Source of the DNA: Isurus oxyrinchus
Lineage: Eukaryota
Length of the DNA: 64,000 nt
Direction of reading: 5' to 3'
Assembly: GCA_026770705.1 (NCBI GenBank)
Contig: JANJGN010000014.1
Span: 18,042,001-18,106,000, forward strand
Shown: piece by piece, positions 3,664 to 62,862 of the stretch
How the letters are laid out: each line of letters starts with the position of its first letter
How positions within the stretch are numbered: position 1 is the stretch's first letter
The notes under the pieces: generated by a model
The model's database searches: none
The model's input: the letters and a program-made list of their open reading frames with translations, nothing else
What the model was told of the DNA's origin: nothing
Program-made: the position numbers and the translations under genes

Positions 3664-4153
3664 AATTATGACCAAGTGAGTTCCAAATGGCTCCCCTCTT
3701 TGTCCTCTCCTTATTTGATGCAACAGGTTTTTTGTATGAAAAGGATATACTTGCCAATTCAGTGAGTACTTAACTGTTTACACGCCGGGATCATAAAAAC
3801 CAATAGGACAGTTTTTCTTGAGTGTAACAAAGAAAAAAGTTAGCTTTATTATACTTAAACTGATCTAAGTAAAATAATAAAATATGCACTGCCTTTCACA
3901 CACACACACACATACATTCAAAGTTCACTCACACACAAATACAGATTACAGAGTGGGAAAGGGTAGATTGGACACATTAGAGTCCATAAAGAAAAGTAAA
4001 AGAGTATAGAATCTGCAGTTTGGTGATTCAGCTTGTTTTAGGCTGAACATGATGGCCCCGATGCTTCCGATTTAAACATGTAGGTGGCTGAAACAAAAAC
4101 AGAATTACCTGGAAAAACTCAGCAGGTCTGGCAGCATCGGCGGAGAAGAAAAG

Positions 4154-4192
4154 AGTTGACGTTTCGAGTCTTCATGACCCTTCGACAGAACT
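4154..4192 (-). ncRNA. Minimal type I hammerhead ribozyme in Penelope 3' region (left arm)
   Basis: AGUU-CUGUCGA-A-GGGUC augaa GACUC-GAAAC-GUC-AACU: stem I AGUU/AACU, stem II GGGUC/GACUC, GAAAC followed by the GUC triplet. Confidence 0.75.
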
Positions 4193-4577
4193 TGATTTCG
4201 AGTCCAGGAAAGAGTTGAAATATAAGCTGGTTTAAGGTGTGTGTGTGTGGGGGGCGGAGAGAGAGAGAGAGACAGAGGTGCTTGTGTAGACAAACAAGCA
4301 GTGATAGAAGCAGATCATCAAAAGATGTCAGTGACAATGGTACAATAGAACACATAGGTGTTAAAGTTAAAGTTGGTGATATTATCTAAACGAATGTGCT
4401 AATTAAGAATGGATGGTAGGGCACTCAAGGTACAGCTCTAGTGGGGGTGGGGGGAGCATAAAAGATTTTAAAATATTTAAAAATAAGTGGGAAAAGAAAA
4501 ATCTGTAAAATTTATAGGGAAAAAAAAGGGGGAAAAAAAGGGGGAAACAGAAAGGGGGTGGGGATGGGGGAGGGAGC

Positions 4578-7355
4578 TCATGACCTAAAGTTATTGAATT
4601 CAATATTCAGACCGGAAGGCTGTAAGGTGCCTAGTCGGAAGATGAGGTGTTGTTCCTCCAGTTTGCGTTGGGCTTCACTGGAACAATGCAGTAAGCCAAG
4701 GACAGACATGTGGGCAAGAGAGCAGGGTGGAGTGTTAAAATGGCAAGCGACAGGGAGGTTTGGGTCATTCTTGCGGACAGACCGCAGGTGTTCTGCAAAG
4801 CAGTCGCCCAGTTTACGTTTGGTCTCTCCAATGTAGAGGAGACCACATTGGGAGCAACGAATGCAGTAGACTAAGTTGGGGGAAATGCAAGTGAAATGCT
4901 GCTTCACTTGAAAGGAGTGTTTGGGCCCTTGGACGGTGAGGAGAGAGGAAGTGAAGGGGCAGGTGTTACATCTTTTGCGTGGGCATGGGGTGGTGCCATA
5001 GGAGGGGGTTGAGGAGTAGGGGGTGATGGAGGAGTGGACCAGGGTGTCCCGGAGGGAGCGATCCCTACGGAATGCCGATAAGGGGGGTGAAGGGAAGATG
5101 TGTTTGGTGGTGGCATCATGCTGGAGTTGGCGGAAATGGCGGAGGATGATCCTTTGAATGCGGAGGCTGGTGGGGTGATAAGTGAGGACAAGGGGGACCC
5201 TATCATGTTTCTGGGAGGGAGGAGAAGGCGTGAGGGCGGATGCGCGGGAGATGGGCCAGACACGGTTGAGGGCCCTGTCAACGACCGTGGGTGGAAAACC
5301 TCGGTTAAGGAAGAAGGAGGACATGTCAGAGGAACCGTTTTTGAAGGTAGCATCATCGGAACAGATGCGACGAAGGCGAAGGAACTGGGAGAATGGGATG
5401 GAGTCCATACAGGAAGCGGGGTGTGAGGAGCTGTAGTCGAGGTAGCTGTGGGAGTCGGTGGGTTTGTAATGGATATTAGTGGACAGTCTATCACCAGAGA
5501 TTGAGACAGAGAGGTCAAGGAAGGGAAGGGAAGTGTCAGAGATGGACCACGTGAAAATGATGGAGGGGTGGAGATTGGAAGCAAAATTAATAAATTTTTC
5601 CAAGTCCCGACGAGAGCATGAAGCGGCACCGAAGTAATCATCGATGTACCGGAGAAAAAGTTGTGGAAGGGGGCCGGGGTAGGACTGCAACAAGGAATGT
5701 TCCACATATCCCATAAAGAGACAGGCATAGCTGGGGCCCATGCGGGTACCCATAGCCACACCTTTTATTTGGAGAAAGTGAGAGGAGTTGAAGGAGAAAT
5801 TGTTCAACGTGAGAACAAGTTCAGCCAGACGGAGGAGAGTAGTGGTGGATGGGGATTGTTCGGGCCTCTGTTCGAGGAAGAAGCTAAGGGCCCTCAGACC
5901 ATCCTGGTGGGGGATGGAGGTGTAGAGGGATTGGACGTCCATGGTGAAGAGGAAGCGGTTGGAGCCAGGGAACTGGAAATTGTTGATGTGACGTAAGGTG
6001 TCAGAGGAATCACGGATGTAGGTGGGAAGGGACTGGACAAGGGGAGAGAGAAGGGAGTCAAGATAACGAGAAATGAGTTCTGTGGGGCAGGAGCAAGCTG
6101 AGACGATCGGTCTACCGGGGCAGTCCTGTTTGTGGATTTTAGGTAGGAGATAGAAGCGGGCCGTCCGAGGTTGGGCGACTATCAGGTTGGAAGCTGTGGG
6201 AGGGAGATCCCCAGAGGAGATGAGGTCAGTGACAGTCCTGGAAACAATGGCTTGATGTTCAGTGGTGGGGTCATGGTCCAGGGAGAGGTAGGAGGAAGTG
6301 TCTGCGAGTTGACGCTCAGCCTCCGCGAGGTAGAGGTCAGTGCGCCAGACAACAACAGCACCACCCTTGTCAGCGGGTTTGATGACAATGTCAGGGTTGG
6401 ACCTGAGAGAATGGAGTGCAGTGAGTTCAGAGAGAGACAGGTTAGAATGGGTGAGAGGAGCAGAGAAATTGAGACGACTAATGTTGCGCCGACAGTTCTC
6501 AATGAAAAGATCAAGAGAAGGTAAGAATCCAGAGGGAGGGGTCCAGGTGGAGGGAGAATATTGGAGATGGGTAAAAGGATCTGTTGAACTGGGAGAGGAC
6601 TCCTGCCCAAAGAAGTGAGCCCGGAGACGAAGACGGCGAAAGAAGAGTTCAGTATCATGCCGAGCCCGAAATTCATTGAGGTGAGGGCGTAAGGGTATGA
6701 AACTAAGTCCTTTGCTGAGCAGTGAACGTTCAGCATCGGAGAGGGGAAGGTCAGGGGGTATAGTGAATACACGGCTGGGGCTGGGATTGGAAGATGGGGT
6801 GGGGACGGAGGGACAGGCTGGGGTGGAGGGTCCTAGATGGGTGTTGGTGTCGATGAGTTGTTGGAGCTTGCGTTCCTTAGCAGTTGAGAGAAAGAGAAAA
6901 AGTTTCTTGTTGAGGCGTCGGATGAGCCGAAGGATAAAATGAAACTGGGGGCACGCGCAGCTTTGAAAAAGGGTACGGCGGTGCTGCTGGAGGGAGAGGT
7001 CGAGTGTGTTCATATGGCGGCGCATGGCACTGAGTGTGGATTTCAGAATGTGACGGGAACAGCAGTCTGAGAAACGTTTTATGTCCCGGAGATACCGGTA
7101 ATCCTGGGTGGGTTCGAAAGATGAGGGGTGGAATTTCAGTTGAAATCCACGTGGGGTAAGTCGGAGACGGAGGCAGTCACTGAGAAAGGAGATTCTCACG
7201 TTCTCACGTTGAACAATTTCTCCTTCAACTCCTCTCACTTTCTCCAAATAAAAGGTGTGGCTATGGGTACCCGCATGGGCCCCAGCTATGCTTGTCTCTT
7301 TATGGGATATGTGGAACATTCCTTGTTGCAGTCCTACCCCGGCCCCCTTCCACAA
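4578..7355 (-). CDS. Penelope-like reverse transcriptase + GIY-YIG endonuclease. Genuine element sequence is about 7192-4578; the first ~54 codons are antisense of the other arm.
   Basis: PLE motifs LLSKGLSF-P, IKPADKGGAVV, LLPKIHK, GRPIVS, MDVQSLYTSIP, QIKGVAMG, RYIDD, PFLD; Cys linker CPRKRCNTC (Neptune hallmark); GIY-YIG NLVYCIRC..CGLLYIGET...EH; C-terminal PSGLN. Confidence 0.92.
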   Translation of the reverse strand: MWKGAGVGLQQGMFHISHKETSIAGAHAGTHSHTFYLEKVRGVEGEIVQRENVRISFLSDCLRLRLTPRGFQLKFHPSSFEPTQDYRYLRDIKRFSDCCSRHILKSTLSAMRRHMNTLDLSLQQHRRTLFQSCACPQFHFILRLIRRLNKKLFLFLSTAKERKLQQLIDTNTHLGPSTPACPSVPTPSSNPSPSRVFTIPPDLPLSDAERSLLSKGLSFIPLRPHLNEFRARHDTELFFRRLRLRAHFFGQESSPSSTDPFTHLQYSPSTWTPPSGFLPSLDLFIENCRRNISRLNFSAPLTHSNLSLSELTALHSLRSNPDIVIKPADKGGAVVVWRTDLYLAEAERQLADTSSYLSLDHDPTTEHQAIVSRTVTDLISSGDLPPTASNLIVAQPRTARFYLLPKIHKQDCPGRPIVSACSCPTELISRYLDSLLSPLVQSLPTYIRDSSDTLRHINNFQFPGSNRFLFTMDVQSLYTSIPHQDGLRALSFFLEQRPEQSPSTTTLLRLAELVLTLNNFSFNSSHFLQIKGVAMGTRMGPSYACLFMGYVEHSLLQSYPGPLPQLFLRYIDDYFGAASCSRRDLEKFINFASNLHPSIIFTWSISDTSLPFLDLSVSISGDRLSTNIHYKPTDSHSYLDYSSSHPASCMDSIPFSQFLRLRRICSDDATFKNGSSDMSSFFLNRGFPPTVVDRALNRVWPISRASALTPSPPSQKHDRVPLVLTYHPTSLRIQRIILRHFRQLQHDATTKHIFPSPPLSAFRRDRSLRDTLVHSSITPYSSTPSYGTTPCPRKRCNTCPFTSSLLTVQGPKHSFQVKQHFTCISPNLVYCIRCSQCGLLYIGETKRKLGDCFAEHLRSVRKNDPNLPVACHFNTPPCSLAHMSVLGLLHCSSEAQRKLEEQHLIFRLGTLQPSGLNIEFNNFRS

Positions 7356-8438
7356 CTTTTTCTCCGGTACATCGATGATTACTTCGGTGCTGCTTCATGC
7401 TCTCGTCGGGACTTGGAAAAATTTATTAATTTTGCTTCCAATCTCCACCCCTCCATCATTTTCACGTGGTCCATCTCTGACACTTCCCTTCCCTTCCTTG
7501 ACCTCTCTGTCTCAATCTCTGGTGATAGACTGTCCACTAATATCCATTACAAACCCACCGACTCCCACAGCTACCTCGACTACAGCTCCTCACACCCCGC
7601 TTCCTGTAAGGACTCCATCCCATTCTCCCAGTTCCTTCGCCTTCGTCGCATCTGTTCCGATGATGCTACCTTCAAAAACGGTTCCTCTGACATGTCCTCC
7701 TTCTTCCTTAACCGAGGTTTTCCACCCACGGTCGTTGACAGGGCCCTCAACCGTGTCTGGCCCATCTCCCGCGCATCCGCCCTCACGCCTTCTCCTCCCT
7801 CCCAGAAACATGATAGGGTCCCCCTTGTCCTCACTTATCACCCCACCAGCCTCCGCATTCAAAGGATCATCCTCCGCCATTTCCGCCAACTCCAGCATGA
7901 TGCCACCACCAAACACATCTTCCCTTCACCCCCCTTATCGGCATTCCGTAGGGATCGCTCCCTCCGGGACACCCTGGTCCACTCCTCCATCACCCCCTAC
8001 TCCTCAACCCCCTCCTATGGCACCACCCCATGCCCACGCAAAAGATGTAACACCTGCCCCTTCACTTCCTCTCTCCTCACCGTCCAAGGGCCCAAACACT
8101 CCTTTCAAGTGAAGCAGCATTTCACTTGCATTTCCCCCAACTTAGTCTACTGCATTCGTTGCTCCCAATGTGGTCTCCTCTACATTGGAGAGACCAAACG
8201 TAAACTGGGCGACTGCTTTGCAGAACACCTGCGGTCTGTCCGCAAGAATGACCCAAACCTCCCTGTCGCTTGCCATTTTAACACTCCACCCTGCTCTCTT
8301 GCCCACATGTCTGTCCTTGGCTTACTGCATTGTTCCAGTGAAGCCCAACGCAAACTGGAGGAACAACACCTCATCTTCCGACTAGGCACCTTACAGCCTT
8401 CCGGTCTGAATATTGAATTCAATAACTTTAGGTCATGA
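7128..8438 (+). CDS. 5'-truncated duplicate of the Penelope RT C-half + GIY-YIG (second arm)
   Basis: From VLTLNNFSFN onward it matches the C-terminal part of the 4578..7355 protein apart from rare substitutions (e.g. ASCKDS vs ASCMDS). It lacks the N-terminal RT motifs, so it is unlikely to be functional alone. Confidence 0.75.
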   Translation: MEFQLKSTWGKSETEAVTEKGDSHVLTLNNFSFNSSHFLQIKGVAMGTRMGPSYACLFMGYVEHSLLQSYPGPLPQLFLRYIDDYFGAASCSRRDLEKFINFASNLHPSIIFTWSISDTSLPFLDLSVSISGDRLSTNIHYKPTDSHSYLDYSSSHPASCKDSIPFSQFLRLRRICSDDATFKNGSSDMSSFFLNRGFPPTVVDRALNRVWPISRASALTPSPPSQKHDRVPLVLTYHPTSLRIQRIILRHFRQLQHDATTKHIFPSPPLSAFRRDRSLRDTLVHSSITPYSSTPSYGTTPCPRKRCNTCPFTSSLLTVQGPKHSFQVKQHFTCISPNLVYCIRCSQCGLLYIGETKRKLGDCFAEHLRSVRKNDPNLPVACHFNTPPCSLAHMSVLGLLHCSSEAQRKLEEQHLIFRLGTLQPSGLNIEFNNFRS

Positions 8439-8822
8439 GCTCCCTCCCCCATCCCCACCCCCTTTCTGTTTCCCCCTTTTTTTCCCCCTTTTTTTCCCTA
8501 TAAATTTTACAGATTTTTCTTTTCCCACTTATTTTTAAATATTTTAAAATCTTTTATGCTCCCCCCACCCCCACTAGAGCTGTACCTTGAGTGCCCTACC
8601 ATCCATTCTTAATTAGCACATTCGTTTAGATAATATCACCAACTTTAACTTTAACACCTATGTGTTCTTTTGTCCCATTGTCACTGACATCTTTTGATGA
8701 TCTGCTTCTATCACTGCTTGTTTGTCTACACAAGCACCTCTGTCTCTCTCTCTCTCTCCGCCGCCCCCCCACCCACACCTTAAACCAGCTTATATTTCAA
8801 CTCTTTCCTGGACTCGAAATCA

Positions 8823-8861
8823 AGTTCTGTCGAAGGGTCATGAAGGCTCGAAACGTCAACT
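8823..8861 (+). ncRNA. Minimal type I hammerhead ribozyme in Penelope 3' region (right arm)
   Basis: AGUU-CUGUCGA-A-GGGUC augaa GGCUC-GAAAC-GUC-AACU; stem II is kept through a G-U wobble. Confidence 0.75.
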
Positions 8862-9889
8862 CTTTTCTTCTCCGCCGATGCTGCCAGACCTGCTGAGTTT
8901 TTCCAGGTAATTCTGTTTTTGTTTTGGATTTCCAGCATCCGCAGTTCTGTTTGTTTTTATGTAGGTGGCTGAGTTGGTTGTTCTCTGGTAGACAGTAGTG
9001 CTGGGTTGGATTCTTTTAAGAAATCTCTGTTTGCAGCAGGGTGCTCCTGAATGATGACAGTCAGCAAACAAGGCTCGGAGCTTACCATGCGAAGCAGGAG
9101 GGGCTACACTTAGGTCTTCTCCTGAAGCTGCTTGTCTTCAGTTCTGCTGAGAAAACATACTTAAAACATTCAGAAGGTTGGCTTGTCATTTGATTTTCCT
9201 TCTCCAACTGCCAGGGGGATTCAAAAGAAAGATATTGTCTGTGTATTCCAAGGGCGACATGATTAGCTTATGTCTGGAAGCTAGTTGAGACAGGGTCCCA
9301 TTGTCCTAATGATTAGTCTTAATGGCCTTTCTCCAATAGTTGAATACCTCAGGTGATTGCCACAGATGCCTTCCTAATGAGACAGGGGATGTGAGTCCTT
9401 CATGCTCCCTTGAAGTCATTGTCTTTGATGGATTTTGTAGACAGACTGACTCCGGTCCACTGAAATGGAATGTGGAGTGTATAGTAATGCAAGTTTGGGT
9501 TAGCCATCTTGGGTTGTGAGTTCCAGTTGTTTTAGCCTCTGTGTTTTTTAAAAAGTCTGTTTTTAAAAGTTCCATTCAGGTTTCCAGCCACTGGATTAAA
9601 AATCGTTATTTGGCATAAAGCACAACTTCATGACCCCATCCAGGTTGATGTGATCCACTTGCTCAGTAGCCCCTGCAACAATACCTTCAACACTCACAAA
9701 GGGAGCAGTGTTAGCGGCATGCCTTCTGTGTGTCAAAGTGACAAGAAACCCACTTATCTGTTCCCCCCTTATGGTGAGATTCAGGCTGTCTTGCTTGATT
9801 TTGCATTTCTCAACCCCAATAATGGCCAGGCTTTCTGGACAATTGTTTCCTCTGCCTGTTAATCTAGTCAAATTTGGAGGGGGACCCTC

Positions 9890-12508: not shown

Positions 12509-13696
12509 ATGGGAGCTGAACTGTCTACTGGAGGCACCTCCTCTGAGGAGGAAGCAAGGGTTAGAAGGTGGAGGAGGCCAGTAGTGCACATTCAGCCTCC
12601 AGGGGAGCCACCTTTGGGAGGAGAGGCGCAGGCACAAGGGGCGCAGGGCCAAGAGGTAGTCCAAGGTGGAAGGGGCTGCAGAAGACGCCACTATCCTGCT
12701 GCCAGGGTTTACAGGCAGCGAAGCAGCTACCTCAACATGTCTGAGGTGCAGTGCCGAAGGAGGCTCTGTCTCTCAAGGGAGACAGTCAACTATATCCGTC
12801 AGATGATAAGGCCTGACATCTCCCCTAACTGTATGGGTGGACGGCCTATAACTGTGGCTCTGAAGATCACAGCTCCCCTCAACTTCTTTGCTTCTGACTC
12901 CTTCCAGGGCTCGGTGGCTGATCTTTTGCAGTGTCTCCCAATCAGCTGTCCACACTTGTGTCAAGCAGGTTACAGACACTCTGTTTAGGCATCCATTGAC
13001 CTTCATCCACTTCCTTTGGGACCAGGCAAGACAGACACAGCGAGCCAGAGGCTTCCCCCGTGTCCAGCGTGTAATAGACTGCACACATGAGGCCATCAAT
13101 GCGCCAGCAGGTGAGCCCAGTGCCTTCGTCAACAGGAAGGACTTCCACTCCATGAACGTGCAGATAGTGTGTGATCACAGGATGCTGATTTTACAAGTCT
13201 CTGCAAGGTACCCAGGCAGCTCCCATGATGCCTATATTCTCAGACACTCCCAGGTGCCGGGGCTCTTCAGTGCTCCAGCCCAGCTGGATGGATGGCTGCT
13301 GGGTGACGAGGGCTATCCCCTCAGAAGGTGGCTCATGACGCCTCTCCACCATCCAAGAACAGAAGTTGTGCAGTGCTACGATAGGATCCACGGCTCCATA
13401 AGGGCTGTGGTGGAGAGAACCATTGGTTTTCTCAAGATGCGCTTCCGATGCCTGGACCGCTCAGGGGGCGCACTCCAGATCATGTGTCGCTGATAGTGGT
13501 TGCAGGCTGCACTCTGCACAATCTTGCGCTGGAAAGGGGGGACGCAGTGGACGATGAAGATGTAGACATATTGGCTGCGGCTGCACACGATGAGTCCAGC
13601 AGTGATTCTGAGGATGAGCAGGCACAGGGAAATGCTGACGGGGTAGACGCTGACCCGGGCATACTGCAGGGAGGCAGGGACACCCGGAGGCTTTAA
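12509..13696 (+). pseudogene. Harbinger DDE transposase (HARBI1-family), frameshifted across three ORFs
   Basis: LNFFASDSFQ, SQSAVH, GFPRVQRVIDCTH, FVNRKDFHSMNVQIVCD, PGSSHD, WLLGDEGYP, VVERTIGFLKMRFRCLD, CTLHNLA, plus an acidic tail. Confidence 0.9.
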
Positions 13697-35149: not shown

Positions 35150-37120
35150 GAGTAAGAGGTGAGAGTGGTGAGTGTGTGGAACACGTGGGACAGAGTGTGG
35201 ATCAGGCAGGATTGAGTGTTTGGAACAGTGCAGAACAGGCAGGAGTGAGAGTGTTGAGCAGGCGGGAGTGAGAGTGTGGAACAGGCAGGAGAGAGAATGG
35301 AACAGGCAGGAGGGAGGGTGTGGAACAGGTGGAGGGGAGAGTGAAACAGGTGAGAGGGAGAGTGGAACAGATGGGAGTACGAATGTGGAACAGGCAGGAG
35401 TGAGAGTGGAACAGGTGGGAGTGAGAATGTGGAACAGGCAGGAGAGAGAGTGAAACAGGCGAGAGGGAGTGTGGAACAGACGGGAGTGTGAGAGTGTACA
35501 GATGGGAGTGAGGATGTGGAACAGGCAGGAGAGAGAGTGAAACAGGCGAGAGGGAGTGTGGAACAGACGGGAGTGTGAGAGTGTACAGATGGGAGTGAGA
35601 ATGTGGAACAGGCAGGAGTGAGAGTGGAACAGGCGAGAGGGAGAGTGGAACAGATGGGAGTGCGAATGTGGAACAGTCAGGAGTGAGAGTGGAATAGGTG
35701 GGAGTGAGAGTGTGGAACAGGCAGGAGAGAGAGTGAAACAGGCGAGAGGGAGAGTGGAACAGATGGGAGTGCGAGTGTGGAACAGTCAGGAGTGAGAGTG
35801 GAATAGGTGGGAGTGAGAATGTGGAACAGGCAGGAGTGAGAGTGGAACAGGTGGGAGTGAGAATGTGGAACAGGTGGGAATGTGAGAGTGGAACAGGCGG
35901 GAGGGAGAATATGGAAGAGACTGGAGTATGAGAGTGCACAGGCAGGAACAAGAGTGTGGAATAGGCAGGAGTGAGAGTGTTGAACAGGTGAAAGTGAGAG
36001 TGTGGAACAGGCTGGAGATAGAGTGGAACAGGCAGGAGGGAGAGTGTGGAACAGGCGGGAGTAAGAATGTGGAACAGGCGGGAGTGAGAGTGGAACAGGT
36101 GGGAATGAGAATGTGGAACATGTGGGAGTGAGAGCGTGGAACAGTCGAGAGTGAGAGTGTGGAACAGACGGGAGTGTGAGAGTGGAACAGGTGGGAGCGA
36201 GAGTGTGGAACAGATGGGAGTGTGGAACAGACGGGAGTGTGAGAGTGTACAGATGGGAGTGAGAAAGTGGAACAGGCAGGAGAGAGAGTGGAACAGGCAG
36301 GAGGGAGAGTGTGGAACAGGCAGGAGAGAGAGTGGAACAGGCAGGAGGGAGAGTGTGGAACAGGCGGGAGTGAGAGTGGAACAGGTGAAAGGGAGAGTGG
36401 AACAGGTGAGAGGGAGAGTAGAACAGACGGAAGTGAGAATGTGGAACATGTGGGAGTGAGATTGTGGAATAGCCGGGAATGAGAGTGTGGAACAGTCGGG
36501 AGAGAGAGTGTGGAACAGACAGGACTGTGAGAGTGTACAGGTAGGAGTGAGAGTGTGGAACAGGAGGGAGTGAAAGTGTTGAAAAGGTGAAAGTGAGAGT
36601 GTGGAACAGGCAGGAGCGAGAGTGGAACAGGTGGGTGTGAGAGTGGAATAGATGGGAGTAAGAATGTGGAACATGTGGGAGTGAGACTGTGGAACAGTCA
36701 GGAGAGAAAGAGAGTGGAACAGGCTGAAGGGTTGTGGAACATGTGGGAGTGATAGTTTGGAACGGACAAGAGGGTGGGCATGGAACAGAACTGAGTGAGA
36801 CTGTGAAACGGATGTGAGTGAGTGTGGAACAGACAGGAGTGAGAGTGGAACAGGCAGGAGGGACAGTGGAACAGGCGGGAGGGAGATTGTGGGACAGGCA
36901 GGAGCAACAGAGTGGAACAGGCAGAAGGAAGAGTGCAACAGGTGGGAGTCAGAGGTTGGAGCAGACGGGAGGGAGAGAGTGGAACTGGCAGGAGGGAGAG
37001 TGTGGAACAGGTGGGAGGAAGAGTGGAACAGGTGGGGGTTAGAGTTTGGAACAGGCAGGAATGAGAGCATGCAACAGACGGGAATGAGTGTGTGACACAG
37101 GGTGGAGAGTGAGAGTGTAG
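35150..37120 (+). repeat. Purine-rich degenerate minisatellite (about 21-23-nt unit GTGGAACAGGCAGGAGTGAGAGT)
   Basis: Dozens of GGAACAG-centred units; local 87-bp higher-order duplication (35431 and 35518). Confidence 0.95.
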
Positions 37121-43160: not shown

Positions 43161-43746
43161 CTGGGTGTGGTATACAGGGCTGATGGGAAGGAGTAAAGTT
43201 GAAAGAGGCGGAGGGAGTAGCTTAAAGTGAGAACTTAATAAGCAGGAATGAAATGATTGGAACTGAGGGTCTATATGAGTTTGTGTCCAAAACTGTTACT
43301 TCAAAACCCTGAACCCAATTCAGACCCCATGCCTTTTCCAATCTCACTCCCCCCACCCCACCCCCCCAAACCCTGGTATTATTACACAGCCATCCCTTGC
43401 ATTAAAGTCCTTACACGCTGAGACATCCCACCCTACAGGTCTTGAAGAAATCACTAATTAACATGAAGCCCATCTAAATAAAAAAAAAGGTCAAATCACC
43501 AGAGATGCCGAAGGTGAAAGGCTCTTTTGAGGAGCCAGATCCTTTATCAAACACATTCACTCAAACTGGGCCTCCAGGCCTACTGCTACAATTCATGGGC
43601 TTCAAAGACTTAGAGAGGGCAAAAATAGGGCTTTACAAAAATGGGAACAGTAAAGCTGGCATTGTTCTTCTTGGAGCAGAGAAGGCTAAGGGGAAATTTA
43701 ATAGAGGGGTTCAAAATTGTGAAAGATTTTGATAGAGAAGGTAGGA

Positions 43747-43886
43747 GTTCCAAAGAAAAGCCATATTGGACTCGAAATGTTAACTCTGTTTCTCTCTCCA
43801 CAGATGCTGCCAGACCTGCTGAGTTTTTCCAGCATTTTCAGTTTTTATTTCAGATTTCCAGCATCCGCATTTCGCTTTTATATCAA
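43747..43886 (+). mobile_element. Short Penelope 3'-end fragment with decayed hammerhead, inside a CR1 piece (about 43650-44180)
   Basis: gagttCCAAAGA...ggactcGAAATGTTaactc...gatgctgccagacctgctgag; possible TSD GTAGGA at 43741-43746 and 43887-43892. Confidence 0.65.
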
Positions 43887-44469
43887 GTAGGAACAAACCA
43901 CTTCCACAGGCAGAAGATCTCGGTAACTAGAACGCATAGATATTGGCAAGAGAGCAAAGTGGGTAAATCAAAAGGAATTTCTTCATCCAGCAAGTTGTGA
44001 TCTGATTGAAAGGGAGTTAGAAGATTCACCTGTAACTTTCTAAAGGGAATTGGGGAAATACTTGAAAAGCAAAGGGTTATGGGGGAAAAAGTGGGGCAGG
44101 GCAGGGAGGTGGGGACGAATTAGAAAGATAAGAGCCAACATAGGTTAGATGGGCCAAATGGCCTTCTTCTGCACTGTGTGATCATTTGCTTCTGTGACTC
44201 TGGGTTTCTTCCAACAAAAGCTCTGAGCCTTCTTTTAGTTTTTATGCAGTCACCCAAGAAGCATGTGGTGTCAGAACATGGGGCAGTGGGATCCAATCAC
44301 AGCTCTGACAGGCCCGATTTTACCACCTCCCCTTCTCCCCCCACACACATTTGGAAAGTAAATATTCCGCACTAGAAAGGAACTGTAAATTATTTAGTGT
44401 CATTGTTTAGGTTATCATTCCTTGTATTCCACTCAGCCTGAGGCAATTATTGGGAATGATAATGAATCT

Positions 44470-44960
44470 TGACACTGCAGTGCTGCACAGTCAGAGGTGC
44501 CATTTGGGATGAGATGTGAAACTGAGGTCAAGTCTGCCCTTTCAGGTGGATGTAAATGATCCCATGACACTAGTGTGAAGAGGAGCGGGGGAATTCTCCC
44601 CGGTCTCCTGGCCAATATTTATCCCTCAACCAATATCACTCAAGTTCTGTCGAAGGGTCATGAGGACTCGAAACGTCAACTCTTTTCTTCTCCGCCGATG
44701 CTGCCAGACCTGCTGAGTTTTTCCAAGTAATTCTGTTTCTGTTTTGGGTTTCCAGCATCCGCAGTTTTCTTTGTTTTTATCACTGCAGTGGATTATCTGG
44801 TCACTATTTCATTCTGTTTGTGGAATCTTGCTGTGCGCAAATTAGCTGTTGTGTTTCCGACACTACAACAGTGACAGCGCTTCAAAAAGTACCTCATTGG
44901 CTGTAAAGAACTTCTGAGATCAAGAAAGTTTCTGTGTAAATACAAGGTTTTCTTTTTTTG
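44470..44960 (+). mobile_element. Deu-type SINE interrupted by a Penelope mini-insertion
   Basis: Homologous to 31600-32040 on both sides of 44641-44777. Confidence 0.75.
44641..44777 (+). mobile_element. 137-bp Penelope 3'-end insertion beginning at the hammerhead (ribozyme at 44643-44681)
   Basis: Nearly identical to 8821-8958; TSD TATCACT at 44634-44640 and 44778-44784. Confidence 0.9.
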
Positions 44961-48819: not shown

Positions 48820-51800
48820 GCATTGAGTCATAGATTCATTTACTGCACAAAAGGGGGCAGTTCAGCTCATTGTGCCCATGCCTGCCCTCTGCAGAGCAAC
48901 GCAGTCAGTGCGATTCCCCGTAGCCTTCAAGCTTATTTCCTTCAAGTGCCCATCCAATTTCCTTTCGAAATCATTAACCCTTTCTGCTTCCACTACCCTC
49001 ATGGGCAGTGATTTTCAGGGCATTACCACTCACTACGTAAAAAATTGCTTCCACATATTTCCCCTGCCTCTCTCGTTTAAACTCTTAAATCTGTGCCCCC
49101 TCATGCTTGTACCATTAGCTAATGGGGAGCGTTTTTCCTTGTCTACCTTATCTAAGCCTGTTATAATCTTGTACACTTCTATCAAATTTCCCCTCAATCT
49201 CCTTTGCTCCAAGGAGAACAACCCAAGCCTTTTCAATCTAACTTTGTAACTAAACCCCCTCCGTCCCTGGAACCACTCTGGTAAATCTCTGCACCCTCTC
49301 AAGGACTTTCACATCTTTTTGAAAGTGTGATGACCAGAGCTGGATGCAATCCTCTAGTTGGTGTCAAACCAGAGCTTTATAAAAGTTCATCACAATGTCC
49401 CTGATATGTAATCAATGTCTCTATTTATGAAGTCCAAGATCACTCCTTCAATAATGTCCTGCCACCTGCAAAGATCAATGCATGTGCATCACCTCCTGGT
49501 CCCTCTGTTGCTGCACACTCTTTAGAATCATCTGTTAAGTCTATATTGCCTCTTCCTACACCTTCTGAAAAAATGCATCACCTCACACTTCCCTTTATTA
49601 AATTCCATCTGCTACTTGTTTATTCATTCTGTTAGTCTTTCTATGCCCTGTTGTCAGCAATTTGTATCACCTTCACAGTTTGCCACACCTCCAAGTTTGG
49701 CATCATTGACAAATTTTGAAATTTTATTCTGTATTCCAATATCCAAATCATTTGAATATATCAAAGGAAGCAGCAGGGATGGCACTGCCCCTTGTGGATC
49801 ATCAATAGCTACCACCCTCTAGTTCAAAAAACATCCATCTACCACAATGAAGATTAAAGCAAAATACTGCGGATGCTGGAAATATGAAATAGAAACAGAA
49901 AGTGCTGGAAAAAACTCAGCAGGTCTGACAGCTTCTGTGGAGAGAGAAACAGAGTTAACGTTTTGAGTGCACTCTGAAGAAGAATCGTGCGGACTCGAAA
50001 TGTTAAACTCCAGTTCTCTCTCCACAAGACATTGCCAGGCCTGCTGAGTTTTTCCAGCATTTTCTTTTTTTATTTCATCTACCACAACTTGTTGCTTTCT
50101 GTCCTTAAGCCAATTTTTTTTATCCATTTGAACACTGACCCTCCTCAATTCCATAGCCCTGATTTTGTTAACCAGCCTTTTATGTGGAATTTCATCAATG
50201 CTTTTTAAAATCCATATAGACAACGTCCACTGAATTCCCTTTATCAACCTTTTATTACTTCATCAAAAAAGTCAATTAGATTAGTCAAGTACAATTTCCT
50301 TTTTACAAATCCATGCTGGCTCTCCTTTGTTAACTCAAACCTCGCCAAGTGCCTGTTGATTTGTTTCCCCTGAATATGAATTCCAAAACCTTACCCACCG
50401 CTGATGTTAAACTACTGGCCTGTAGTTACTTGGATTGTCCTTGTACCCTTTATGAATAAGGGTGTCACATTTGTCACTCTTCGATCTTCTGGTACCTCCC
50501 CACACCTAGGGGAGTTTAAAAGTTTAAGGTAAGCCCTTTTGCTATCTCCACCCCACTTCCTTTAACAACCTGGGATACAAGCCATCCAGGCCAGGTGACT
50601 TATCTACCCTAAGCATAGCCAGCCTTTCCAGTACCTCCTCCCTTTCAGTTTTCATGCTCTCCACTGCCTCCACTATATCCGCTTCTACCAATATTTTATC
50701 AGATTCGTCTTCTTTAGTAAACACCAATACAGAGAGCTTGTTAAGTATTCCAGCCTTACCCTGTGCCTCTGAGCATGTATCACCCTCGTTGTCCCTAAAA
50801 AGACCCACTCCATCACTGACTATCACTATTGCTGGTAGAGGATTTTTGGGTTTCTTTTATATTAACTGCCATTCTCTTCTCATTCTCTATCTTTGCCAAT
50901 CTTGTTTTCCTCTTCACCTCCCTCTCAACCTTATTGTATTTGACCTGGTTCTCACTTGAAGCATTCACCTGATATGCATCATACACCCTCCTTTTTTGTT
51001 TCATCATGACCCCTATCTTCATTGTCATCCAGCAAGCCCTGTTTTTGGCTCCTTTACCTTTGTTGGAATGTACCTAGCTTGTACCTGAAGCATCTCTTCC
51101 TTAAAGATCAATCACCCATCGTTCCGTTACAGCACCTCCTGGCAGTCTTTGGTTCCATTTTACTCTAGCTAGAACCCTACTTATTGCATTGAAATTAGCC
51201 CTCTTCCAAATTAGAAGTTCTACATTACTAATCTAAACCTTACGATATGCTGATCACTGTTATCCAATTGCTCCTCCACAGACTCTAGGCCCATCTCAGT
51301 TCCCAGTACCAGATCCAGCCATGCCTCCTTTCTAGTTAGAGTCATAGAGCCATGGAGGCCTACAGTACAGAAAAAGGCCCTTCAGTCCATCGAGTCTGCA
51401 CCAGTCAAACAAGCCTAACTATTCTAATCCCATTTTCCAGCACTAGGCCCATAGCCTTGTATGCCATGGCATCGCAAGTGCACACCCAAATACTTCTTAA
51501 ATGTTATGAGGGTTTCTGCCTCCACCACCCTTTCAGGCAGTGAGTTCCAGATTCCCACCACCCTCTGGGTGAAAAATTCTTCCTCACATCCCCTCTAAAC
51601 CTCCTGCCCCTTACCTTAAATCTATGCCCCCTGGTTATTAATCCCTCCACCAAGGGGAAAAGTTCCTTCTTGTCTACTCTATCTACGCCCCTCATAATTT
51701 TATATGCCTCAATCATGCCCCCCTCCCCCCCCCCCCAATCTCCTTTGCTCCAGGGAAAATAACCCCAGTCTATCCAATCTCCTCTCATAACTAAAACTTT

Positions 51801-58040: not shown

Positions 58041-58668
58041 TTTTTGTACTTTCCTGAGGTGTGGGGTGTTGCTGGCAAGGACGGCATTTGTTGCCCCATC
58101 TATAATTGTCCTTGAACTGAATGGCTTGCTAGGCCATTTAGAGGGCCACTTTGCTCAGCGTCTGGATGGCATTAGTGAATCAAATGGGTTTTTACACATA
58201 GTTGCCATGGTCACTTTCAATTCCAGATTTATTAATCGAATTTAAATTTCATCAGCTGCCTTGGTAGGGTTTGAGCACATGTCCCAGAGGTTTAGCCTGG
58301 GCCTCTGGATTACTTGTCCAGTGACACCACTGTCTCCCTATTCTACTCTACTCATTCCCATGTGAAGCAACTCTTCATGTTAGTCAGGTGGATGAAGTAA
58401 ATATTAGTGAGCACCTTGGGAATACTGACCACAATAAAAGGCTTCAGATAAAACCAGGAGGGGGGGAAAGTCAGTACAAAACCTAAAACACCGGATTAGA
58501 AAGGGCAAGAATTCAGAAAAATTGAGAAACTGGCACATCAGATCAGAGCACAACAATAGCATGTTTTCAGAAGAAAAGAAATTGTAAAGGTACAGAATAA
58601 GTATGAAGTAAAAACTGGTAATATTCAGCAGGTCAGGCAGTATCCATAGAGAGAGAAACAGAGTTAAC

Positions 58669-60350
58669 AGGCAGGATTTTCCCCACTGTGTTCAGGATCC
58701 TGATGTCAAACAGGACCAGAGCTCTCTTGGGGGTTGGGGGAGCAGTCACCCAGCAGTGAATTGCCCGAATTGGCAAATTAATGGTCGGAGGGCAGGCTCT
58801 CAAAGCTAGAAGGGCAATAGGACAATAGGAAGCATCACCGCTCAACAGAGTGGCAGGCAAGTTGGAGGAGTCTGTTCGCCTGGTCTCTGATGAAGTGGTG
58901 CCCCTATGTGTGTGCTTGGAGGTCTCCAAGGGGAGGATGGCAGACGCCATGGAGACCCTCATCCAACAGAATGTCCAGTGTCTTCTGGAGACACGCATAG
59001 ACCTGCACTCCATCGCCATTGCTATGTGTGACTTCATGCAGTGGCTATGTGAAAAGTTAAAGGGGCACTTTGATGTCCCTCCATGTGCCCCTTCCCGTCA
59101 AGGAGTTAGGCCGGGGCTCTCGGGCACCCAAAGTGGGGAGAAGCGGCAGCTGGATGGCCTTGAGCCATCCACTTAGGAGTCTCAGAACCCCTTTGAATCC
59201 CCTTTACCTGTAACCCCTTCAACCTCATCCTCTGTCACTGCAAAGGGAACAACTGGCCCACAGTGGGACAGCCAAAGTAAGTTGGTGCCCTCTAGGCCTC
59301 AGCATTCCAGAGGATGGCCACTGAAGTCATCAGAGGCAACAGGGCCAACCGTTGCATAGGCTGTCTCCACCCCTGCTGCAGATGTCAGGGCAGCACCTAG
59401 AAAAAGTGGTAAGCACTGTAAAATCAAGAAAATTTGATCTCAGGTGGTTGCACATGTGAACTTTGTCACTGTATTGGCTGCAAATATATTCACTCTCACT
59501 AAATAATGTCTACTGTTGTCATTCAGCATCATAATAAAGGCTTCGTGAGATCTCCGTCCCTCCACCATCACCTTCACTGCACTCCGCCAACAGTAGTAGT
59601 TCAGCTGCATGCAGCTGGACCATGAGTGTATTCTGGAGGGAGGAACATGTGTGGCAGGGCCTTTCGGAGCCTCGTGCAAGCACTCTCCCACACACGTGGA
59701 GCCTTCATCCATCACATTCATCTCAAAATCCTGAGTGTTTTCAATGCTGCCTGCTGGGGTTCAGTTGTCCATCTGAGCTGACCTGCATCTCCCCCCAACC
59801 CACTGATCACACTCCCATGCAGCACCTGTACCCATCCAACATGAGGCTCCATTCACTTTCGATTTTGAAAAGATGGCATTGCCAAATTCCTCATGAGCTC
59901 CCCCACCATCTCCCCACCCCCAGTCACCCATATCCTTTCCCCCATAATAATAGATCCCCCTGGCATAATGTACGACCTTCCTACCACCACCTCACAGTCA
60001 GAACCCTTCTCATTCCAGGATGCCCAGGTGAACATGCACACTCCCTACCTTCCAGAGAACCCCATTCCATTTGTGTTGAACTCCCGACCTCCTCCTTCGT
60101 ACCCCCAGGGTCTGTGTTTGTCTCCATGTCCCCATCAATCACCCTTGCTGCCTCATCTACTGTTACCGACGCACCCTCACCCTCCCACTCTTCCGGCGGG
60201 AAACACGGCCCGCCATTGATGGGTGGAGCAGACAATTGCAAACTGGTTTCATCATGACGTGAAACCGATTTTTGGCCTTCCCGCCATATTTTCGGCTCAC
60301 GTCCACCATGACGCTCGATGCCAACTGCCCTAGGAGAGGAATTCTAGTTT
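58669..60350. mobile_element. Internally deleted Harbinger derivative
   Basis: Left TIR-like GGCAGGATTTTCC; remnant similar to the Myb-gene C-terminus (58850..59176) and an acidic transposase tail on the minus strand; terminal region resembles 12030-12200 and 33600-33795. Confidence 0.55.
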
Positions 60351-61229
60351 GACAGTTTAACAATCGTGTGACAATAAAATACGTTTTTAGAGGCAGATAC
60401 AATGTTAATCTTGCCTCATGTCACAATGACTGTGACTGATAGATTTTTGTTAGGTAGGGGTATTAAAGAAGTTAAGATGAGTCAATGAGATTGAAGTATA
60501 GATCAGCCATGATTATATTAGAGCAAACTCGAAGGGCTGAGTGGCCTCGTCCTGTTCTTATGCCCCGATGAAGACGAGGCTTTAATGAACTCTTTTGATT
60601 TGTAAATTATCATACGGTTATCAATTTGTATGCATTAATCTCCTTGACAGTGTCTCCCTCACTATCAAATCAAACAATCCTGGATGAAGATTGCAAATCA
60701 ATTAATCAATATACAATTTCTGTGTGGATTCCTTTATTGTCTTTCTCCTATTGTTTTATCAATGCTTCATCAACAAGGGCTCATGTTAGACAAGCTTCAC
60801 AGTTCAATGGTCTGCATATACAAGCAAATAAATTCCAAAAAGCCTAGGCCTCATTTGTGGAGAGATGTTTGATAACCAGGTGTAAAAGCAACCAGAGTAT
60901 TGTTACTCTCCCAAGGCCCCACTCCAGTCTCTCATTCAACAATTCAGTGAACACTGAAGCAATAGAAAGGAATCAACTAAATGATTTGTACCTATGCAAA
61001 AGTGGCAATGATTTATAATTCACCAAACTGAACAGGTTAGTTTCTGGGCTGATCTCTAAGACTGAACATTTAAAGATCATTTCGTAGCTAAACCCACATC
61101 TCTGATTGAAAATGCTGTGTTGATTGAATAGATAGAGCTGGAGTGAACTGGAAAAACTGTGACAGAGGAATTCTACACAATATGAGCGAATAGGCAGGAG
61201 TTCTGCTTATGGTGGGAGAAGGTACTCAG

Positions 61230-62862
61230 GGACTGAATGTAATGGGTTTAATCCATTTACATTCTATATAATGGGATTAAATATAAGGGGTTTGGTCCAT
61301 TTCCAATCCATGTAATCGGAGTGAATATAAGAGGTTTGATCCATTTACATTCTACATAATGAGATTGAATGTAAGGGGTTTGGTCAGTTTACATTCTACA
61401 TAATGAGATTGAATGTAAGGGGTTTCGTCAGTTAAATTTTATATAATGAGATAGAATGTAAGGGGTTGGTCAGTTTTCAATATAATGGGACTGAAAGTCT
61501 CATTCAATATAATGAGACTGAAAGTAAGGAGTTTGGTCAGTGTATGTTCCATGTGATGAGACTGAACAATAGATCTTTGGTCAGTTCACGTTCTATATAA
61601 TGAAATTGAATGTGAGGGGATTGGTCAGTTTACGTTCTATATATTGTGATTGAATGTAAGGTGTTTGGTCAGTTTACATTCTATATAATAAGACTGAATG
61701 TAAGGTGTTTGGTCAGTTTACATTCTATATAATAAGACTGAATGTAAGGTGTTTGGGCAGTTTACATTCTATATGATGAGACTGAATGTAAGGGGTTCGG
61801 TCCATTTACATTCTATATAATGAGACTGAATGCAAGGGGTTTGGTCCATTTACATTCTATATAATGAGAGTGAACATAAGGTGTTTGGCCAGTTCACGTT
61901 TTATAAAATGAGATTGAATGTATGGTGTTTGATCAGTTTAAATTCTAAATAATGGGATTTAATGTGAGGTGTTTGGTCAGATTATGTTTTATGGAATGAG
62001 ATTGAATGTAAAGAGTTTGGTCAGTTTATATTCTATACAATGAGATTGAATGTAAAGAGTTTGGTCAGTTTATATTCTATTTAATGAGGCTGAAAGATAG
62101 TTTAGATTCTATATAATGAGATTGAATGTAAGGGGTTTGGGCCATTTACGTTCAATATAATGAGAGTGAACATAAGGGCTTTGGTTAGTTTAAATTTTAT
62201 ATAATGAGATTGAATGTATGGGGTTTGATCAGTTTAAATTCTAAATAATGGGATGAAATGTAAGGGGTTTGCATTCTATATAATAAGATTGAATGTAAAG
62301 TTTATGGTCAGTTTATATTCTATATAATGAGATTGAATGTAAGGTGTTTGATCGGTTTATATTCTATATAATGAGATTGAAAGTAAGGGGTTTGATCAGT
62401 TTATATTCTATATAATGAGATTGAAAGTAAAGTTTTTGGTCAGTTTATATTCTATATAATGAGGCTGAAAGATAGTTTAGATTCTATATAATGAGACTGA
62501 ATGTAAGGGGTTTGGGCCATTTACGTGCAATATAATGAGAGTGAACATAAGGGCTTTGGTTAGTTTAAATTTTATATAATGAGATTGAATGTATGGGGTT
62601 TGATCAGCTTAAATTCTAAATAATGGGATGAAATGTAAGGGGTTTACATTGTAAAGTTTTTGGTCAGTTTATATTCTATATAATGAGATTGAATGTAAGT
62701 GGTTTAGTCAGTTTAAGTTTTATACAATGAGGCTGAAAGTAAGGGGTTTGGTCAGTTTATATTCTATATATGAGATTGAGTACAAGGTGTTTGGTCCGTT
62801 TATATTCTATAAAATCAGACTGAATGTAAGGGATTTGATCCATTTACATTTTATGTAATGAA
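61230..62862 (+). repeat. 44-bp AT-rich minisatellite (ATAATGAGATTGAATGTAAGGGGTTTGGTCAGTTTACATTCTAT)
   Basis: Period 44 (e.g. 61681 and 61725); roughly 37 units; 375-bp higher-order duplication (62086 and 62461). Confidence 0.95.

Follow-up and report, generated by a model that had tools for sequence, protein, structure and literature searches.

Penelope-like elements (PLEs) are already known to leave the layout described here, in which two copies lie with their tails outwards, an additional tail stands on one side and one target-site duplication (TSD) surrounds both. The typical Penelope structure, as given for Pen2a_Av of Adineta vaga, comprises pLTRs in direct and inverted orientation together with a TSD and a 31-bp tail at one of its ends (PMC3846280), and an adjacent inverted 5'-truncated copy with a 30-40-bp tail is drawn for PLEs in the scheme of Fig. 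2 in PMC8557442. Two routes to the inverted form are offered in print: in the portions of text available, PMC3846280 explains it by antisense self-priming and PMC8557442 by resolution through the endonuclease (EN). Poseidon of Anolis (PAc) cuts and extends both strands in vitro, a dimer is predicted, and two internal start sites for reverse transcription (RT) bound the tail; in the available text the two strands do not differ in where RT starts (PMC11167929). Inverted copies are not covered by the model of that paper, as far as its main text and the accessible part of the methods go. Minimal hammerheads in pLTRs, with pairs noted on opposite strands, are reported in the available part of PMC4209133, and the accessible text of PMC9977147 and of bioRxiv 10.64898/2026.07.22.740005 adds nothing on mechanism. 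In a literature search that did not reach subscription journals or older reviews, no PLE paper attributed the inverted form to double-ended priming.

Another point of reference is twin priming in L1. Both strands of a staggered cut are reportedly used as primers there, with microhomology at the central joint (the account is that of Ostertag and Kazazian, 2001). The second primer lands inside the RNA, the resulting segments do not overlap and only one end carries poly(A).

Anatomy of the insertion and its empty site

The window, that is the whole 64-kb stretch of DNA that was analysed, holds one young Penelope-like insertion that is ordinary for its class (Table 1). The sequence-only reading of the window had described two element 3' ends as the outer boundaries, an inverted duplication of about 1.72 kb and one perfect 14-bp TSD around everything, and all of this is confirmed. 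The arms align with their tails outwards over 1726 columns (4091-5816 against 7200-8924) at 99.4% identity, with 10 substitutions and one indel in the aligned part. The two copies of the TSD, ATGTAGGTGGCTGA, are exact, cannot be extended by any base on either side and are the only two occurrences of this 14-mer in the 64 kb.

Table 1. Features of the insertion and its surroundings (window positions)
Feature	Position	Strand	Remarks
Host repeat, about 1.1 kb, solo-LTR-like, split by the insertion	3665..9634 (about 3665-4091 and 8959-9634)	.	Paralogues L002, L012
TSD, left copy (14 bp)	4078..4091	+	3' end putatively primed the left arm; empty orthologue and paralogues have the 14-mer once
Long arm, near-full-length Penelope-like element	4092..7194	-	Truncated at the 5' side after codon 47; 3' end of the short type at 4092
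Left-arm 3' UTR patch, at least 105 nt (e2854-2958)	4242..4346	-	Older-haplotype alleles between markers of its own sub-lineage
Open frame, 871 codons, no native start codon	4578..7193	-	DKG, RT motifs, CX4CX2C linker, GIY-YIG with CCHH
Central junction	7193..7208	.	2-nt microhomology and 8-nt templated duplication, TTCTCACG twice
Short arm	7200..8958	+	Long-type 3' end; 5' truncation falls within the RT domain
Hammerhead-like motif of the pLTR	8828..8858	+	Found by eye; mirror copy at about 4157-4187 on the - strand
35-nt tail, right arm only	8924..8958	+	Same end-points in selected and unselected family copies
TSD, right copy	8959..8972	+	First 2 nt (AT) match the native run-on of the element

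Positions within the element are numbered along its sense strand as e, which on the left arm equals 7200 minus the window position. The left arm is near full length (4092-7193/4) and its outer end corresponds to 8923, where 1 nt is ambiguous because the TSD ends in an A; this short 3' end is e3108 (window 4092 and 8923). The right arm runs 35 nt further to the long 3' end at e3143 (window 8958). At the central junction the 5' truncation points of the arms are 1377 nt apart. In tandem copies of the family the sequence continues past the long end to an ATG, 40 nt beyond in L036, and the arm ends are thus internal RT start points. The tails had been read as stopping at different T-rich sub-repeats of the 3' UTR; that they end at different points is correct, but the end-points correspond to the two known RT start sites and not to arbitrary T-rich sub-repeats.

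Contigs of runs X5 and X13, from two studies of related organism B, cover 3925-4091 with one mismatch. The loose end of the X5 contig leads from the 14-mer without a break into the right flank at 8973 and beyond (shown for X5), so the orthologue has one 14-mer and no insertion. The paralogues of the host repeat end in TG...CA and are flanked by 4-bp duplications. In 4 of 11 paralogous loci (L002, L004, L009, L010) the two flanks share exactly 14 bases, and each of these loci has a single related 14-mer. The expectation that empty copies of the site would carry the 14-mer once agrees with both the orthologue and these four loci. In run X2 (organism A) the match of a contig of 271 nt ends at 4077, as in the X5 empty-site contig, a weak hint of a possible empty allele in that sample.

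The single TSD and the empty orthologue support the conclusion that the whole head-to-head structure arose in one event. It is highly improbable that the locus is a fold-back artefact of assembly, or two unrelated insertions side by side or recombined. The family has more than 100,000 ends, so neighbours occur, and none of the contigs listed from the sequencing runs aligned to the locus bridges the filled junctions. However, the arms differ at 11 places in addition to the tail, the flanks are not mirrored, the one TSD is the single 14-mer of the empty orthologue, the arms are mutually closest relatives and the same form with TSDs recurs in 30 of 63 unselected insertions.

The element and its relatives

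The first 47 codons, absent from the left arm, are present in the tandem copy L036. The left-arm frame has a Pfam match to RVT_1 (E 5.6e-8, above cut-off) and weak support from a match to GIY-YIG (E 0.014, 16.1 bits, under the cut-off of 22.6). By residue, the RT part contains DKG at 275, DVQSLY at 419, GVAMG at 478 and RYIDD at 515, the last three presumably PLE-type RT core motifs. The GIY-YIG domain with its CCHH residues is represented by VYCIRCSQC at 775, YIGET at 787, EH at 801 and CH at 817, and the linker that joins RT to EN by CPRKRCNTC at residue 737, which has the form CX4CX2C. In the available part of PMC8557442, DKG is named as a PLE RT motif and a CX2-5CXXC linker defines Neptune (or Nematis). 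Judged by its motifs, the element is an EN+ Penelope-like element (RT and GIY-YIG) with a Neptune-type Cys linker. The single ORF with a PLE-type RT and a GIY-YIG domain with CCHH, the inverted 5'-truncated copy, the tail of 30-40 nt on one end and the TSD all agree with EN+ Penelope-like elements, and the Cys linker agrees with Neptune (or Nematis). Tandem or pLTR copies, absent here, occur elsewhere in the family (L020, L022, L029, L036, L067). L1-type twin priming does not match the overlap of 1.72 kb, the two element 3' ends and the lack of poly(A). A PDB search gave no solved relative.

Core position 6 of the hammerhead-like motif departs from the hammerhead consensus. An Rfam search gave no hammerhead match at E<=5, the fold z-score is 0.12, and the hairpins are partly present in the fold of L036. 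Many mini-copies, in L106, L110, L113, L128, L153 and others, start at e3008 (window 8823), upstream of the motif, and e3008 is a candidate RNA start. The spacer before codon 48 in L036 (L036:5680-5722) contains a branch-point/splice-acceptor-like ..ACTAA..TTTCACAG within the open frame.

Some leads on the element were rejected. A fixed 5' stop inside the ORF, at which 14 of 19 other copies broke at the base of the main insertion, proved to be an artefact of search selection: frequent words are passed over by the DNA search, so that the hits were limited to copies containing the rare junction word. All 30 of 30 unselected copies run natively past this base. Breaks there with three non-native letters number 31 of 4416, while a control base 3 nt further along has 8, which is at most a mild microhomology effect. 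A circular or tandem RNA with the footprint of an RT-stalling protein lost its support together with the fixed stop, and the spacer folds no better than shuffles. An A-to-G difference of long arms at 8846 (27/45 long against 1/35 other arms) was considered as RNA editing and discarded because the query itself carried G; in unselected loci G was found in 0/37 long arms and 1/33 short arms.

Other repeats occur in the window. A single long-ended copy of the same Penelope-like family as the main insertion, with 95% identity, lies at 44640-44780, and other short PLE 3'-end pieces lie at 43746-43891 and 58615-58669. At 49853-50077 a related Penelope-like family has a short pair with tails outwards, one end long and the other short, bracketed by the 12-bp repeat CATCTACCACAA. 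A DDE_Tnp_4 transposase remnant, presumably Harbinger-type, is present at 12864-13493 (E 3e-31). Two unrelated minisatellites, each with a period of 44 bp, occupy 35233-37118 (made of 21/23-bp units) and 61229-62861.

Ends, junctions and donors across the family

The exact 31-mer of the 3' end has 112,408 occurrences and the 35-mer of the long end 52,264. Among the first 100 of the 112,408 matches, neighbours within 4 kb were tails-out in 21 cases, tails-in in 1 and on the same strand in 7. Among the first 100 of the 52,264 long-end matches there were only 2 tails-out neighbours, one of which (L149) is two separate insertions and the other of which is L190.

An unselected set of 63 insertions was taken from the first 60 of 71 clusters, all within the first 2.5 Mb of one contig. 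Two 3' ends in tails-out arrangement were found in 33 of the 63, a set in which pairs are somewhat over-sampled because either arm can bring a pair in. These pairs are long+short in 27 cases, long+shorter in 3, short+shorter in 2 and short+short in 1 (L118). No long+long pair was found among the 33, compared with about 10 expected from independent choice of ends (P ~6e-6). The remaining insertions have a single long end (16), a single short end (13) or are cut off (1). A TSD of at least 10 bp is present in 30 of the 33 pairs, and 29 of 37 TSDs measure 13-15 bp. The selected loci agree with the unselected ones on end pairing, although L034 in the selected set is long+long without a TSD. L190 is a true long+long pair with a 14-bp TSD; synthesis of its left end, which opens with 12 nt of the short-type end, began at the short site and then started again from the long one. 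Such false starts, with few end bases copied and a restart further out, were observed at L190:880-905 and at the left ends of L104, L121 and L141. L042 was left out of the counts as the same insertion as L035; the two stand on two small contigs (C53 and C55, respectively), which reflects a duplication or an unmerged haplotype in the assembly.

A survey of this kind for tail-out pairs, TSD lengths and end-points had been proposed from the sequence alone, and its yield (pairs in about half of the unselected insertions, mostly long+short, with TSDs of 13-15 bp) makes the locus typical, its layout being the commonest in the family of this genome. The description of it as an unusually clean snapshot is not supported, as the same form is the published typical PLE unit.

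The central junction reads, on the + strand, from the end of the left arm (..GGAGATT) through CTCACG into the right arm (TTCTCACGTTG..). The proposed joining of two cDNAs at their truncated 5' ends is right as regards the head-to-head joint, but the join is not clean, given the 8-nt duplication. Across 58 pairs of the family the junctions show overlap in 33 (mostly 1-7 nt, with one artefactual value), are blunt in 8 and contain an insert in 17. The arm that reaches further 5' is short-ended in 26 pairs and long-ended in 14. Mirror-exact junctions, with both arms ending within 6 nt of the same position, make up 10 of 38 internal junctions compared with 0.33 expected; this comparison takes pairs with both 5' ends upstream of e2995, leaves out those with an end at e2995 or later, and omits L158 with its ambiguous junction. 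Of the ten, three are located in simple sequence, and L040 is a case of a short fold-back with a subsequent jump. The excess is consistent with two rounds of copying of one RNA up to a common break, or with a first cDNA that folded back.

The nearest relative among about 65 arms proved to be the partner in 38 of 56 comparisons, and in 47 the partner is among the top three. The arms of the main insertion rank first of 50 reciprocally, with 13 minority letters in common against 6 differences. A shared donor lineage for both arms is supported by these comparisons of sequence, though the shared letters could also stem from gene conversion or fold-back copying. Differences between arms are private or CpG-type in 473 of 523 cases across the family and are therefore mostly later mutation. 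Two CpG-type letters occur together, among 30 sibling loci, only in the two arms of the main insertion. The allele combination of the patch in the left-arm 3' UTR was found in none of the 30 sibling loci compared (L180 gave no row), and the patch may be due to a template switch or to later conversion.

Proposed priming of the two arms and comparison with known systems

The layout is probably the work of a Neptune-type PLE whose enzyme cut the two strands 14 nt apart, after which each 3' end primed RT at a different one of two sites 35 nt apart. Double-ended priming is thus regarded as its likely source. The sequence-only reading had proposed that each strand of a 14-nt staggered cut primed its own RT, and this agrees with a single event, with both arms reading antisense away from a target 3'-OH and with the one-sided tail. 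The 35-nt tail cannot be copied from the left arm, and a second priming on RNA is therefore its simplest source. The right arm need not be one 1.76-kb cDNA made from RNA: its inner part may be copied from the first cDNA and only the outer part from RNA. A fold-back origin of the inner part is allowed because of the mirror-exact junctions and the short fold-back pieces in other copies.

The steps would be as follows. The enzyme of the element would cut both strands and leave 3' overhangs of 14 nt. The top strand would prime at the short site, with synthesis to codon 48, and the bottom strand at the long site. The 3' end of the first cDNA (..TT) would then pair with AA in antisense element DNA, either in the second cDNA or in itself by fold-back. 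The paired end would be extended by 8 nt, slip back and be extended again, giving the duplication of TTCTCACG, and repair would complete the remaining fill-in.

In a more extreme form of fold-back, one target-primed cDNA copies itself as the whole second arm and the tail comes from EN resolution instead of a second priming on RNA. This is unlikely. Fold-back does occur, as the mirror-exact junctions and the short fold-back followed by a jump in L040, L051 and L022 indicate, and the pair of CpG-type letters private to both arms of the main insertion would be accounted for. The attribution of the tail to EN-mediated resolution is found in the available text of PMC8557442. However, fold-back of the left arm, which stops 35 nt short of the tail, would enter an inverted left flank, and none is present. 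Either the short-ended or the long-ended arm may be the one that reaches further 5', and the limits of the tail match the two RT start sites seen in vitro in the accessible part of PMC11167929. A hybrid of a folded-back inner part and a short second cDNA belongs within double-ended priming.

The ends themselves bear on where synthesis began. At long ends the overlap of the TSD with the native run-on of the element averages 1.83 nt in selected insertions (n=29) against 0.75 in random flank and 1.73 nt in unselected ones (n=22) against 0.71. At short ends it averages 1.17 (n=30, selected) against 0.78, and 0.96 (n=24, unselected) against 0.75, which is near chance. These are bare means with negative values set to zero, and L112 is left out for having no TSD at the stricter setting. 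The overlaps in the main insertion are 2 and 1 nt. The excess at long ends is what target priming predicts, and it argues against a double-stranded palindrome made first by self-priming of an antisense transcript and then integrated as a unit (Arkhipova et al. 2013). That origin, which the Discussion of PMC3846280, in its available text, offers for head-to-head forms and palindromes at junctions, is distinctly unlikely here. The main junction is no palindrome, with arms that stop far apart, and the false starts at ends (L190) point to synthesis on the target.

Under double-ended priming, a coordinated and asymmetric complex, which would probably be a dimer and may act on one RNA, is suggested by the strict combination of a long with a short end and by the mirror-exact junctions. 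It is tentatively proposed that PLEs integrate by way of an asymmetric dimer, in which both strands of a 13-15-nt stagger are extended on one RNA or on two RNAs of one donor and each subunit has its own start site. If true, one mechanism would cover the one-sided tail and the inverted copies as well as the near lack of long+long pairs and the surplus of mirror-exact junctions, and it would replace antisense self-priming. Counting against double-ended priming with such strict pairing are the exceptions to the long+short rule (L118, L190, L034) and the foreign patch in the 3' UTR of the left arm, for which one donor RNA does not account. In the available text of PMC11167929, moreover, no start-site difference between strands was seen in vitro, in another clade, so that strict asymmetry was not reproduced.

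Taken by itself, the locus contributes little more than a clean example that has a proven empty orthologue and a slip at the junction. What is added to the described layout is the deficit of long+long pairs, the excess of mirror-exact junctions, the shared donor and the 8-nt templated duplication at the junction. A family with more than 100,000 ends sets rules for a reconstituted reaction: a stagger of 13-15 nt, one long and one short start, a shared donor and about one quarter of internal junctions mirror-exact.

Like Pen2a_Av and the general PLE unit, the insertion has an inverted 5'-truncated copy placed head-to-head, a tail on one end (31 nt in Pen2a, 35 nt here) and one TSD. Unlike them, its inverted arm is 1.76 kb long and includes coding sequence instead of the pLTR alone. 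The upstream direct pLTR of Pen2a_Av is absent here, and the TSD is 14 bp compared with 8-10 bp in A. vaga. L1 twin priming resembles this locus in the use of both strands of a staggered cut as primers and in the microhomology at the central joint, but here the 3' end is the starting point of both arms, and the duplicated part measures 1.72 kb. PAc, as far as the available text of PMC11167929 goes, resembles the element in two internal start sites that bound the tail, and the hammerhead motif upstream of them has a possible counterpart in the hammerhead-like motif here; cutting and extension of both strands would also be shared. The PAc starts lie 111-118 nt inside the ORF, whereas the start sites here lie upstream of the ATG by about 40 and 75 nt, and PAc shows no homology to the primer, in contrast to the overlap of about 2 nt at long ends and the strict pairing of long with short ends in this family.
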